Assembly (NCBI GenBank): GCA_039961895.1
Contig: JABRVU010000157.1
Location: 1 to 51,771, forward strand
DNA: 51,771 nt
Origin: Phycisphaerae bacterium
GTDB lineage: Bacteria; Planctomycetota; Phycisphaerae; UBA1845; PWPN01
Direction: 5' to 3'
Shown here: piece by piece, positions 49,057 through 51,771 of the stretch
Layout of the letters: the number at the start of each line of letters is the position of its first letter
Numbering within the stretch: position 1 is the first letter of the stretch
The notes under the pieces: model-generated
The model's database searches: none
What the model saw: the letters and a program-made list of their open reading frames with translations, nothing else
What the model was told of the DNA's origin: nothing
Translations under genes and position numbers: made by a program

Positions 49057-50052
49057 ATGGACTTACGCCGGATCAACTTCGGAATCGAGATCGAGACAGT
49101 CAAGCGGACGCGCGAGCGGGTCGCCCAGGCGATCCAGTCGGTGGTGGGCGGCCAGGTCCGCCACATCGGCAGCCCGGGGAGCTTCGACCCCTGGGAAGTC
49201 ACCGACAACCATGGACGGGTCTGGAAAGTGGTGTCCGACGGCTCGCTCATCAATGTGCCGGTCCACCTGCGGGCCGAGGTGGTGAGCCCCGTCCTGTCCT
49301 ACGAGGACATCCCCGTCCTTCAGGAGGTCGTCCGGGCGTTGCGGGCCTGCGGAGCCAAGGTGGACGACCGTTGCGGCATCCACGTCCACGTCGACGCCAC
49401 GGCCTTTGACGGCCGGACCCTCGCGAACCTCGCCAAGATCGTCTACAAACAGGAAGCGCTCATTCTCACCGCTCTGGGCGTGAACGAGACCCGCCGCCGG
49501 AGCTACAGCAAACCGGTGAGCGACGATCTCATCGCGCAGATCGAGCGACGCCGTCCCAGAACCAGGGACCAGCTCAATCACATTTGGTACGGCTACCACA
49601 ACCGGCAGCCCCAGCACTACGACAGCACCCGCTACCACGGGGTGAACCTGCACAACGTCTGGTACCGGGGCACGGTCGAGTTCCGCTGGTTCGAAGGGAC
49701 GCTCCACGCGGGAAAGGTGAAAGCCTACGTCCAACTGGTCCTGGCCGTGGCGGCCAAGGCGCTGAACGGTCGGGCGGCATCGAGCCGCAAGAGGTCCTTC
49801 GACCCACAGAGCGCCCGGTACGACTTCCGGGTCTTCCTGCTCCATCTGGGGCTCATCGGCGACGAGTTCAAGACCGCGCGCAAGCATCTGATCGCCGCCT
49901 TGCCGGGGGACTCGGCCTTCAAACGCGGCAGGGTGAAACCAAATGAACAACCCGCCGACAAGGCGGAACCCTTCACGGAGGCCGGGCCCGAAACCCGGCC
50001 TCCGGCATTTTCGGGGGACGAGACCGGCGGGACGCAAGGAGGCGCGTCATGA
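49057..50052 (+). CDS. Amidoligase_2-family (glutamine-synthetase-like) enzyme
   Basis: [15 protein letters not shown] and [11 protein letters not shown] motifs, characteristic of the Amidoligase_2 family. Confidence 0.75.
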
Positions 50053-50549
50053 GAGTGCTGATTCGAAACACCGCCCTCAATGGGCAGCCGCTGGAAGGCG
50101 ACGGCGAAATCTTCACCGGAGCGACGGTGACCGACGTGGTCCTGGCCATGAAAGGAGCCACGCTCTTTTCCGACCAGCGGGACCTCGAGGATTACATCGA
50201 CATGGTCTTGCGCAACGCCAAGATGCTGTCTGGCGTCGAGCTTACGGTCCGGGGCGACACGCCCGAGGAAAAGGCCGCATCCTTCCTGGATGCCCTGATC
50301 AAACACGGCCTTGCCGAGGTGCAGGACGACAAACCCGCGCGGATACCGATTCCCGCCCTGGTCTGGCAGGGCATCGACGCGGTCCGGCTCTCGGGGTTGA
50401 CCAACATGCTCGACCGGCCGGTCGTCGCCCGGCTGGCAGGGGAGCTCGGATATCCCGATGCCGCGAGCTGGATCGAGGAGCATCCGAAGGAATACGCCGA
50501 GGGCGTCTTCCGCGGGTTCATCGTCGATCCGCAGGGAGGGAAATCCTGA
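50049..50549 (+). CDS. Hypothetical protein with C-terminal DUF5049-like domain
   Basis: ATGA overlap with the upstream stop. [57 protein letters not shown]. Confidence 0.5.
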
Positions 50550-51331
50550 TGTGCGGGCTCGCGGGCGTCATCTTCGGAAAAAAACGGCGGCGCGCCGAGG
50601 AGCGGGAGTATCTCGCCTGGCTCTTTACCCGCCTGCTTGTATTGAGCGAGGAGCGCGGACCACACGCCACCGGCGCGGCATGGCTCGACACCGACGGCGG
50701 ACACCGGCTCTTCAAGCGCCCGGTGACGGCCGAGCGGTTCGTCACGGACAAGGCCTTCGCCGAACTCCTTGCCTCTATGGACAACCGCGCCACGCTCCTG
50801 CTCGGGCACACACGCTGGCGCACCCGAGGGGACGAACGGGTCAACAGCAACAACCACCCGATCCGCGCCGGGGAGGTGATCGGCACCCACAACGGCACCA
50901 TCTACAACGCCGATTACCTGTTCCGCCGCTGGAAGCTGCGACGCTTCGCCGAGGTGGACAGCGAGATTCTGTTCCGCCTGGCCGCAAACGCCGCGCGGGA
51001 CGGGGCCATGGATATCGAGCGGTTCAAAGCCCGGCTCCGGCGCTGTCGGGGTCAGATCACCGCCGTCATCGCCTGCCGGACCGACCCGGGCACCGTCTTT
51101 GTGCTCAAGGGCAACCGACCGCTGGAACTACGCTGGCATCCCCGCCGCAAAGCGGTTCTCTACGCGTCGGACCCGGCGTACCTCGACGCCGTGCTGGCGG
51201 AGGAAAAAGGCTGGCGTGAGATTGCGGTCCCGCCCATGAGCCTGATGGTGTTCCGGCGCGAGGACCTGGCCGGGTACTCGGTGGAGCCCTTCGAGTTTGT
51301 CGCCCAGGAGAGAAGGCGGGCGGAACCATGA
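50549..51331 (+). CDS. Class II (Ntn) glutamine amidotransferase-like protein
   Basis: Starts MCGLAGV (Cys2 nucleophile). GHTRWRTRG, NNHP, HNGTIYN and DSEIL motifs. TGATG overlap with the upstream gene. Confidence 0.8.
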   Translation: MCGLAGVIFGKKRRRAEEREYLAWLFTRLLVLSEERGPHATGAAWLDTDGGHRLFKRPVTAERFVTDKAFAELLASMDNRATLLLGHTRWRTRGDERVNSNNHPIRAGEVIGTHNGTIYNADYLFRRWKLRRFAEVDSEILFRLAANAARDGAMDIERFKARLRRCRGQITAVIACRTDPGTVFVLKGNRPLELRWHPRRKAVLYASDPAYLDAVLAEEKGWREIAVPPMSLMVFRREDLAGYSVEPFEFVAQERRRAEP

Positions 51332-51771
51332 CAGACACCCCAATGAACCCAATGAACCAGGCAATGAACCCAACAGAACCCTTGAAGCCGAACACAAACG
51401 GAATGCTGAGACTCTTCGTCTACGGCACACTGAAGTGCGGTTTCTGGAACCACGACCGCTTCAGCCGGGGAGTCCTGGCGGTGGAGGACGCCTTGGTCCG
51501 CGGCCGCCTCTTCGAGACATCCTCCGGAATCCCGGTCCTGCAGGTCCCGGAGGAGGATATCCTCGCCGTCGGGACCACCGATCCGCTCGCCGACGTGGCC
51601 ACACAAGCGCGCGTCGTGGCTCGCATGTCCAATCCCGAGCCAATCCTCGATCGGCTTCCGAAGAAGGGCACAGGCGCGCCCTGGGGCCCCGTGTATGGGG
51701 AGCTTCTGACCTTCGACGATCCCGAAAACCGCCTTCCGGCCATCGACCGGCTGGAGGGGTTTCATCCCGGC
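51328..51771 (+). CDS. Gamma-glutamylcyclotransferase (AIG2/GGACT-like), 3' end outside the window
   Basis: ATGA overlap with the upstream stop. LFVYGTLKCGFWNH and PVYGEL motifs. No stop codon before the window end. Confidence 0.7.
   Translation, partial: MTDTPMNPMNQAMNPTEPLKPNTNGMLRLFVYGTLKCGFWNHDRFSRGVLAVEDALVRGRLFETSSGIPVLQVPEEDILAVGTTDPLADVATQARVVARMSNPEPILDRLPKKGTGAPWGPVYGELLTFDDPENRLPAIDRLEGFHPG

Follow-up and report, generated by a model that had tools for sequence, protein, structure and literature searches.

We analyzed a 51,771-nucleotide stretch of DNA (the window; contig JABRVU010000157.1, assigned to a Phycisphaerae bacterium) that represents the structural arm of a contractile-tailed phage. 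At its right end, 3′ of the baseplate and tail-fibre genes, lies a four-gene operon (positions 49057 to 51771) encoding an Amidoligase_2 ligase, a two-domain accessory protein, a class II glutamine amidotransferase (GATase)-like hydrolase of the N-terminal nucleophile (Ntn) type, and a γ-glutamyl cyclotransferase (GGCT). The operon is a genuine further member of a long-known, widely annotated, and still uncharacterized kind of cassette. We consider the chances about evenly balanced that it forms a self-contained cytosolic module making and removing γ-glutamyl (amide) conjugates. Amidoligase_2 cassettes are among the most widespread phage enzyme sets without an assigned function. To these, the window operon adds a compact version of four genes, with active sites that appear to be intact, from a prophage lineage of very wide distribution; newly added here are a conserved partner domain in gene 2, a conserved upstream box, and a consistent charge pattern.

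Iyer, Burroughs, and Aravind defined the Amidoligase_2 ligase family, with GATase-like or AIG2 neighbours, in 2008 and predicted the synthesis of a glutathione-like peptide or metabolite rather than protein tagging (PMC2588565). This is the comparative-genomics prediction on which a sequence-only reading of the window had drawn. In that survey, the GATase and Aig2 partners were alternatives, the former in proteobacteria and the latter in firmicutes, and no small conserved open reading frame (ORF) accompanied the ligase (PMC2588565). The chemistry predicted at that time is the same as that predicted for the window operon, but here GATase and AIG2 enzymes occur together, along with a conserved accessory gene. 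In agreement with the sequence-only reading, which knew of no functionally characterized phage copy, we found no enzymology, structure, or knockout of any phage member in the literature. The Amidoligase_2 neighbourhoods were reportedly expanded by Iyer et al. in 2009. With annotated copies in many cultured phages, the cassette is anything but rare or novel.

Four overlapping genes and their products

The four ORFs and their overlaps were found on the plus strand as the sequence-only reading had described them. Gene 1 (49057 to 50052; 331 amino acids [aa]) encodes the Amidoligase_2 enzyme (Pfam PF12224), and gene 2 (50049 to 50549; 166 aa) encodes the accessory protein, with DUF5049 in its C-terminal part only. 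Gene 3 (50549 to 51331; 260 aa) encodes the stand-alone hydrolase, which starts with MCG and matches GATase_6, and gene 4 (51328 to 51771, where it runs off the window end) encodes an AIG2/GGACT-like cyclotransferase that matches GGACT. All four domain assignments of that reading held, and PHROGs were concordant with Pfam for genes 1 and 3. Consecutive genes share an ATGA (50049 to 50052), a single nucleotide of a TGATG (at 50549), and a second ATGA (51328 to 51331), an arrangement indicative of translational coupling throughout.

The gene 3 protein occurs in identical form on five public contigs, the longest of which, JGI Ga0307753_100052 (95,107 bp; L001), is the parent of the window. The parent contig extends the operon past position 51771, as the sequence-only reading had called for: the stop codon of gene 4 lies 138 nt beyond the window end, giving a full product of 193 aa (L001 positions 10780 to 11361). 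We did not find a fifth coupled gene after the cyclotransferase gene in this contig, and the operon is therefore complete with four genes. Hydrophobic, membrane-like segments are absent from all four proteins, which are predicted to be cytosolic. They matched none of the families in the PADLOC-DB 2.0 defence models; genes further downstream matched MAD1, PglXI, and BrxC.

Gene 1 stayed in the amidoligase family on profile search and was not reassigned. Amidoligase_2 matched residues 5 to 231 over profile positions 2 to 244 of 245 (E value, 3.3e-64; 217.6 bits; cut-off, 22), and PHROG 2443, "amidoligase enzyme," matched with an E value of 4e-84. No relative in the Protein Data Bank (PDB) was found at the sequence level, either by single sequence or by profile. 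The AlphaFold2 (AF2) model (predicted local distance difference test [pLDDT], 83; predicted template modelling score [pTM], 0.82) ends in 35 aa predicted to be disordered. Its best Foldseek matches in the PDB were YbdK (1r8g and 1tt4), the ligase domain of GshF (3ln7), glutamine synthetases (GS; 8fbp), and Dop, with probabilities of 1.0 to YbdK, GshF, and GS and of 0.80 to 0.95 to Dop, at TM-scores to solved relatives of only 0.35 to 0.42. The model points to a fold of the GS/glutamate-cysteine ligase (GCL) type that is structurally nearer to small-molecule ligases such as YbdK than to the pupylation enzymes PafA and Dop. Residues E11, E13, R72, E74, H109, H111, R204, and E208 were invariant across 31 ligase homologues and are candidates for the binding of metal and of ATP or acyl phosphate.

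Gene 3 matched GATase_6 with an E value of 3.6e-18, and its best PDB sequence match was the glutaminase domain of GlmS (1xff; 7.7e-7). Residues C2, R36, R89, W90, T92, N115-G116, and D137, as well as the MCG start, were invariant in homologues, and the invariant residues align with the glutamine-binding and oxyanion sites of GlmS. We take their GlmS counterparts to be Cys1, Arg26, Arg73, Trp74, Thr76, Asn98-Gly99, and Asp123. Because the nucleophile and the GlmS-aligned glutamine-binding residues are all invariant, a pocket for a glutamine-like moiety with free α-amine and α-carboxylate appears to be intact. We found no synthase or acceptor domain in gene 3, whose 260 aa comprise the Ntn domain and a short tail, and the protein scored far under the GlmS and PurF equivalog cut-offs. 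For these two reasons, gene 3 is best described as a predicted stand-alone Ntn hydrolase of the class II fold and not as a classical amidotransferase. EgtC is a precedent for such a stand-alone class II Ntn hydrolase without a synthase domain.

Gene 4 matched GGACT (PF06094) with an E value of 5.4e-9 when truncated by the window end and of 6.1e-14 (53.1 bits; cut-off, 22.8) as the full 193-aa product. An insert of about 40 aa splits the match in two, and no PDB relative was found at the sequence level. Across nine distant homologues, which include gut-phage GGCTs and the GGCT of Arthrobacter phage Laroye, Y32-G33 (in the YGTL motif), D140, and E143 (in lDrlEG) were invariant; E143 is presumably the catalytic glutamate.

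The gene 2 protein appears to consist of two separable parts. Pfam DUF5049 (PF16468) matched residues 108 to 151 alone (7.7e-10; 39 bits; cut-off, 28.7). The AF2 model (pLDDT, 85) predicts an N-terminal α/β domain at aa 1 to 92 (the N-domain, taken as aa 1 to 95; positions 50049 to 50339, plus strand), which is unannotated, followed by a four-helix DUF5049 domain at aa 103 to 155 (taken as about aa 100 to 155). The N-domain was matched by no Pfam or PHROG model, both of which see the DUF5049 part only, and Foldseek returned no significant fold match for gene 2 in the PDB or BFVD. In relatives, the two domains behave as separate modules. Ligase fusions occur with the whole gene 2 protein (P0031) and with the DUF5049 domain alone (P0092); the N-domain stands alone in some relatives (113 aa in L009), and gene 2 is absent from some cassettes, such as Hahella L008 and L095. 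A profile of the N-domain also found stand-alone ORFs of 77 to 113 aa directly 3′ of the GGACT gene in distant viral cassettes (E values of 1e-7 to 1e-12; L155, L158, L160, L161, L163, L170, and L174). The N-domain was encoded in 27 of 45 viral loci that carry the ligase, counting those with enough flanking DNA. Since a library-wide search yielded only 102 representative clusters at 50% identity, we regard the N-domain as a small, dedicated family and a recurrent partner of Amidoligase_2 ligases. As far as the literature shows, it has apparently gone unnoticed.

DUF5049 has a wider distribution, with more than 5,000 members that are mostly stand-alone phage proteins of 58 to 75 aa, and we found no mention of it in the literature. 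In gut phages, it adjoins DNA methylases, DUF4314, and Nmad4 close to the terminase, and in one Lachnospiraceae phage a DUF4314-DUF5049 protein is encoded two genes 5′ of an amidoligase-GGACT pair. We also observed a 68-aa DUF5049 protein, 65% identical to the window domain, that is encoded between a pair of large serine recombinase genes with a Prim-Pol gene next to them (L098/L099, 6001 to 6207), a context that has no connection with amidoligases.

The isoelectric points (pI) of the products are opposite, and this pattern is conserved among homologues. The ligase (pI 9.7; median of homologues, 9.6; range, 8.8 to 10.1; n = 70) and the gene 3 hydrolase (pI 10.0; median, 9.9) are basic even in low-GC phages, and gene 2 (pI 4.7; median, 4.7) is acidic, as is its DUF5049 domain. 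Together with the ligase fusions, the opposite and conserved pI values support gene 2 as a partner of the enzymes. We propose that the acidic gene 2 protein would act as a noncatalytic adaptor or regulator of the two unusually basic enzymes.

A small conserved protein encoded beside an amidoligase also brings pupylation to mind. In a pupylation-type scheme, the ligase would modify the side chain of a protein with glutamate or a small protein, deconjugation would fall to the Ntn hydrolase and cyclotransferase, and the N-domain would serve as tag, target, or adaptor. The operon and the pupylation system (PafA, Dop, and Pup) share the ligase fold superfamily, as the presence of PafA and Dop among the Foldseek matches reflects, and the joining of a glutamyl γ-carboxylate to an amine; moreover, the frequency of the N-domain in viral loci is unlike the 2008 report of no such ORF (PMC2588565). 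However, Pup is disordered and ends in Gly-Gly-Gln/Glu. Gene 2 is predicted to be folded, it has neither a conserved C-terminal Gly-Gly-Gln/Glu nor an invariant lysine, and the operon lacks proteasome genes. An apparently Pup-like C terminus proved to be a by-product of the overlap with gene 3, as the conserved GG, which no Gln or Glu follows, coincides with the ribosome-binding site of that gene (GGAGGG) and the CADK ending seen in relatives is an out-of-frame reading of its conserved MCGQ start. Given also that YbdK-type small-molecule ligases are structurally closer, tagging of this type is the least probable of the explanations that we considered.

Proposed chemistry of the operon

The family assignments, the apparently intact active sites, the overlaps of 1 to 4 nt, the co-inheritance of the genes, and the predicted cytosolic location of the products together support the conjugate-making and -removing module. 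From its fold and family, the ligase would use ATP to activate a carboxylate, most likely the γ-carboxyl of l-glutamate, and join it to an acceptor amine to give γ-Glu-NH-R. Judging by its conserved residues, the Ntn hydrolase would act on glutamine or on a γ-glutamyl amide. The more likely of its roles is cleavage of γ-Glu-NH-R into Glu and R-NH2, like EgtC, which we prefer because there is no synthase domain; the alternative would be a supply of ammonia. The cyclotransferase would remove a γ-glutamyl group with a free α-amine, releasing 5-oxoproline and R-NH2. Our leading guess for the acceptor is a small-molecule or peptide amine, for example, a polyamine, an amino acid, or a cell envelope precursor. 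The operon is probably transcribed from its own conserved upstream box and not just from phage late promoters.

This add-then-remove logic resembles the known γ-glutamyl handle pathways, namely, EgtA/EgtC in ergothioneine, PuuA/PuuD in putrescine, and BtrJ/BtrG in butirosin metabolism. In these pathways, an ATP-dependent ligase glutamylates an amine, and a class II Ntn hydrolase (EgtC), an amidotransferase-like enzyme (PuuD), or an AIG2-like enzyme (BtrG) removes the group. The sequence relationship to the operon is at the superfamily level at most, and the handle pathways have tailoring enzymes between ligation and removal, whereas the operon has none.

Several considerations weigh against the module as drawn. 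No substrate, product, or phenotype has been reported for any family member. The main weakness is that the ligase and cyclotransferase, if they share one bond as their target, would run a futile cycle that converts Glu and ATP to 5-oxoproline; the simple writer/eraser picture may therefore be missing something, such as an intermediate step, a second substrate, or a separation in time. The choice of glutamate as donor is an analogy with structural relatives at the low TM-scores given above. The basic character of the ligase and hydrolase would make a polyanionic substrate, such as nucleic acid, a better fit than a small amine, and in some gut phages the system lies among DNA methylase genes. 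Regarding transcription, a consensus scan found no plus-strand terminator-like site between the late genes and the operon, and read-through of the late genes into the operon from a promoter-like site at position 37846 is possible.

Relatives of the operon and alternative functions

Ligase relatives are numerous. More than 5,472 proteins matched with E values below 1e-10, and those with 65 to 99% identity came from genomes that bear the labels of many phyla. When one genome per species was scanned, at least 539 ligase loci were found, the best 80 of which were used for the genome synteny counts. The block formed by the DUF4815 tail-fibre-like gene, a small protein gene, and the operon was syntenic in most of these 80. 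The ligase gene was followed by both the GATase and GGACT genes in 55 of the 68 loci with enough downstream DNA, and a gene 2-like ORF was present in 51 of these 55. DUF4815 was encoded upstream in 45 of the 55 loci with enough upstream DNA, and a MAD1-like helix-turn-helix gene was found downstream in 34 loci. In IMG/VR, 398 viral contigs carried a ligase relative. Among the 45 viral loci described above, GGACT accompanied the ligase in 31 and GATase accompanied it in 17, always along with GGACT, while the DUF5049 domain was present in 12. These counts support co-inheritance of the enzymes, and within the prophage lineage the operon is both syntenic and conserved. Conservation was highest for the ligase (about 70 to 75%, similar to the tail-fibre protein), followed by the GATase (57 to 73%) and then GGACT (44 to 60%), which was similar to gene 2 (35 to 61%).

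The tail-fibre and operon block (window positions 43000 to 51771) showed 89 to 96% nucleotide identity to loci (L013 to L025) whose genomes carry the labels of different phyla. Among these genomes are a Zixibacteria chromosome, the closed chromosome of Syntrophus buswellii DM-2, and metagenome-assembled genomes of Nitrospiraceae, Phycisphaerae, Anaerolinea, Ozemobacter, and Muribaculaceae. Such near-identity across phyla reflects either an exceptionally broad prophage host range or misbinned phage contigs. The S. buswellii DM-2 ligase is 98% identical to gene 1 at the protein level, and this closed genome, like Arthrobacter phage Laroye, is an experimentally accessible carrier. In one locus (L033, 2057 to 4861), the ligase and gene 2 were 98% and 92% identical to those of the window, and the GATase and GGACT were 58% and 46% identical. 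This drop in identity makes the operon a mosaic and implies that cassette lineages have recombined where gene 2 meets gene 3. We also considered whether the operon is kept intact in decayed prophages (L094 and L095). We rejected this idea, as both are unpolished-looking metagenome contigs (L094 is named 9x) in which frameshift errors explain the pattern equally well.

The same trio of adjacent enzymes is already annotated at the right end of the genome in Arthrobacter phage Laroye (gp97 to gp99) and related actinobacteriophages. Laroye, a siphovirus, differs in its gene order (GGCT-ligase-GATase), in having no annotated gene 2 homologue, and in the placement of the cassette beside replication genes and not tail fibres. 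Its ligase is 26 to 30% identical to gene 1 over about 64% of the length.

A second related system is the "peptidoglycan modification cassette" of podoviruses (LUZ24-like phages, phiEco32, PA11, and Pseudoalteromonas phage PSA-HP1; Hardies 2013, Duhaime 2017), which shares Amidoligase_2, class II GATase, and GGCT with the operon. Gene 3 and the podovirus GATase, a protein of about 486 aa, share about 28% identity over 96% of the length. These five-enzyme cassettes have been read, without experiments, as peptidoglycan modifying (PMC5498523; PMC10580990; PMC11318856). Applied to the window, such a route would have the Ntn hydrolase supply ammonia or trim the peptide while the ligase amidates or extends a carboxylate of the stem peptide (d-iGlu or mDAP), with a wall change in the infected or lysogenic cell that blocks superinfection by other phages. 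The location of the operon would suit this idea: its own upstream box and a defence cargo hot spot in a temperate phage make a typical site of lysogenic conversion, and all four products are predicted to reside in the cytosol, where peptidoglycan precursors arise. The enzymes themselves fit less well. It is established chemistry that the cyclotransferase requires a free α-amine, which in peptidoglycan is acylated by l-Ala, and the hydrolase retains the residues that bind the free α-amine and α-carboxylate of l-Gln. In addition, two of the five podovirus enzymes, an ATP-grasp enzyme and a second ligase (COOH-NH2_lig), were absent from the four operon products and from the five complete downstream genes scanned. 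The settings also differ, as the podovirus cassette lies in the early/DNA metabolism region of lytic phages (e.g., UFV-P2 ORFs 21 to 28) and the window operon belongs to a contractile-tailed prophage, where it lies 3′ of genes for the baseplate and tail fibres. We consider peptidoglycan modification unlikely, although not negligibly so.

The closest phage ligases are those of Firmicutes gut phages (Heliusvirales, FP_Taranis), with 36 to 42% identity over 85 to 97% of the length. In these phages, GGACT lies directly downstream of the ligase, and a DUF4314-DUF5049 protein is encoded nearby in at least one phage. They differ from the window in having no GATase and in placing the pair between DNA methyltransferases and the small terminase. 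This setting, with ParB-methyltransferase, SAM synthetase-like, and Nmad4 neighbours, is one of the observations that speak for nucleic acid as the substrate. A ligase guided by gene 2 would then glutamylate or amidate a base in phage or host DNA (or tRNA) and the hydrolases would trim the product, protecting phage DNA from restriction-type defences. The consistently basic ligase and GATase also fit this scheme, and uncharacterized amidoligase and amidotransferase genes have been reported beside thymidine hypermodification genes in viral contigs (Lee et al. 2021; PMC8989533). Nonetheless, in Pfam scans of the operon genes and the 20 larger ORFs of the window, a Dam-type methylase was the only DNA modification enzyme, with no hydroxymethylase, base kinase, or transglycosylase. 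Gene 2 and its DUF5049 domain are acidic, so DNA binding is unlikely, and the position of the cassette varies by phage group, being after the tail fibres here and in early regions elsewhere. On balance, we view nucleic acid modification as quite improbable.

A broader possibility is a nonmetabolic conflict system, in which the basic ligase, steered by gene 2, would mark a macromolecule (DNA, tRNA, or protein) with a glutamyl or amide group, and the Ntn hydrolase and cyclotransferase would process or erase the mark, so that the phage is protected from host immunity or rivals are excluded by it. We hold this possibility to be unlikely, at roughly one chance in five. If true, it would represent a new class of macromolecular modification, present in hundreds of prophages across many phyla; more generally, a macromolecule or an immune signal as the target would mean new chemistry in phage-host conflict.

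Finally, these genes have been assigned to host metabolism. Amidoligase, GATase, glutathione synthase, and GGCT genes of Phage-ZRK32 were called nitrogen metabolism auxiliary metabolic genes on a physiological basis, and phage-dependent growth stimulation with nitrate or ammonium was reported (eLife 2024; PMC10945688). By the same logic, the window operon would boost the nitrogen, glutamate, or glutathione metabolism of the host during infection or lysogeny. It is established that GCS2/YbdK-like ligases and GGCT are part of the γ-glutamyl cycle. On the other side, the Phage-ZRK32 paper contains no enzymology (PMC10945688), the operon has no glutathione synthetase, and the ligase is distant from true GCL and GS, with no PDB sequence match even by profile. 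A ligase paired with a cyclotransferase would also burn ATP and not assimilate nitrogen. A metabolic role of this kind therefore seems very unlikely to us, only marginally less so than pupylation-type tagging.

Upstream spacer and prophage setting

The operon is preceded by an intergenic spacer of 213 bp (48844 to 49056, plus strand) with a GC content of 0.512, compared with 0.630 for the window; a GC content this low occurs in just 0.39% of 213-nt windows. It contains a conserved DNA box, CTTGCTTTTTGTTCGGAAAGAAGC (48965 to 48988, plus strand), a candidate promoter or operator that is unique in the window and had 0 matches in shuffles. In relatives, the box reads CTTG[CA]TTT...GAAAGAAGC, followed by TTCATG or TGTATG. 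It lies about 70 to 95 nt 5′ of the ligase start across loci of several phyla (Desulfobacterota, Acidobacteriota, Verrucomicrobiota, and Planctomycetota, and also in Gammaproteobacteria). Within the box, TTGCTT (in relatives, TTGACT or TTGATT) resembles a −35 element, but a good −10 element is lacking, and a consensus scan flagged no sigma-70-like promoter in the spacer, the box included. A Shine-Dalgarno-like AAGGAGA (49046 to 49052, plus strand; AAGGAGA or ACGGAG in relatives) was read from the sequence ahead of gene 1.

A structured RNA or riboswitch leader was rejected as an explanation for the spacer. Rfam searches at E values up to 10 gave chance matches only, RNAalifold on 23 diverse upstream regions returned zero consensus pairs, and the hairpins preceding the ribosome-binding site vary in place and sequence. 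Because there is no consensus RNA structure, we interpret the box as a putative DNA-level control element that travels with the cassette, with a predicted promoter or operator role.

Elsewhere in the window, a bipartite motif, CCGAC-N15-CCGGTARRTA, occurs in seven exact copies, all on the plus strand (407 to 436, 1568 to 1597, 7725 to 7754, 14822 to 14851, 21741 to 21770, 30825 to 30854, and 37846 to 37875), compared with 0.27 expected by chance. The copies are about 1 to 9 kb apart, and each precedes a gene block; they probably serve the phage as late promoters whose −35 and −10 elements are unusual. An exact-match scan of the window found no copy in the spacer and none after position 37875. 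The low GC of the spacer and its lack of the motif are as the sequence-only reading had noted. The "separate, moron-like regulation" that it suggested fared unevenly: separate control is plausible given the absent late motif and the conserved box, but the operon is not moron-like in GC content, GC content at third codon positions (GC3), or synteny, all of which are phage typical. The GC content (0.63 to 0.67) and GC3 (0.78 to 0.86) of the operon match those of the structural genes, and the operon is therefore no recent foreign insertion.

Downstream content varies between loci, and the operon is thus the last conserved block before a defence cargo hot spot. In the parent contig, a gap of 200 bp after GGACT contains a strong sigma-70-like promoter by consensus scan (TTGACA-16-TATATT; L001 11407 to 11434), and a MADS/BREX-like defence island (L001 11562 to 20783) starts 339 nt beyond the window end. 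The island encodes a MAD1 helix-turn-helix protein (NCBIfam, 83.9 bits; cut-off, 80), a RadC-N-like protein, a BrxF-like P-loop protein, a PglXI-type methyltransferase (846 aa; PADLOC, 1e-107), a BrxC-like ATPase (1,445 aa), and PglZ (969 aa). Other loci carry two N6-methyltransferases and a kinase (L009) or a type I restriction-modification system (L093) in this position, and in some, host genes follow the operon.

The structural arm itself encodes a large terminase, a Mu-type portal, a Mu F-like protein, a tail sheath, a tape measure, and baseplate V and J proteins. It further encodes a P2-I-like protein, the DUF4815 tail-fibre-like protein (1,182 aa), a protein of 101 aa, and one that is weakly GH43-like, and the operon comes after all of these. 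Similarity to known phage DNA was limited to a single match of 158 nt at 69%. In the head morphogenesis region, a 1,287-aa protein (14956 to 18819) contains two repeats of a D12-class (Dam-type) adenine methyltransferase, 1,467 nt apart. A family 2 glycosyltransferase (33506 to 34771; Pfam, 2.6e-29) is encoded inside the baseplate/tail module, where it overlaps the end of the baseplate V-like gene. Between the terminase and portal genes, a 529-aa ATPase with AAA_14 and DUF4143 domains (6280 to 7869) is encoded on the minus strand. It is the sole long minus-strand gene among those scanned in the structural arm and may be an inserted accessory gene.

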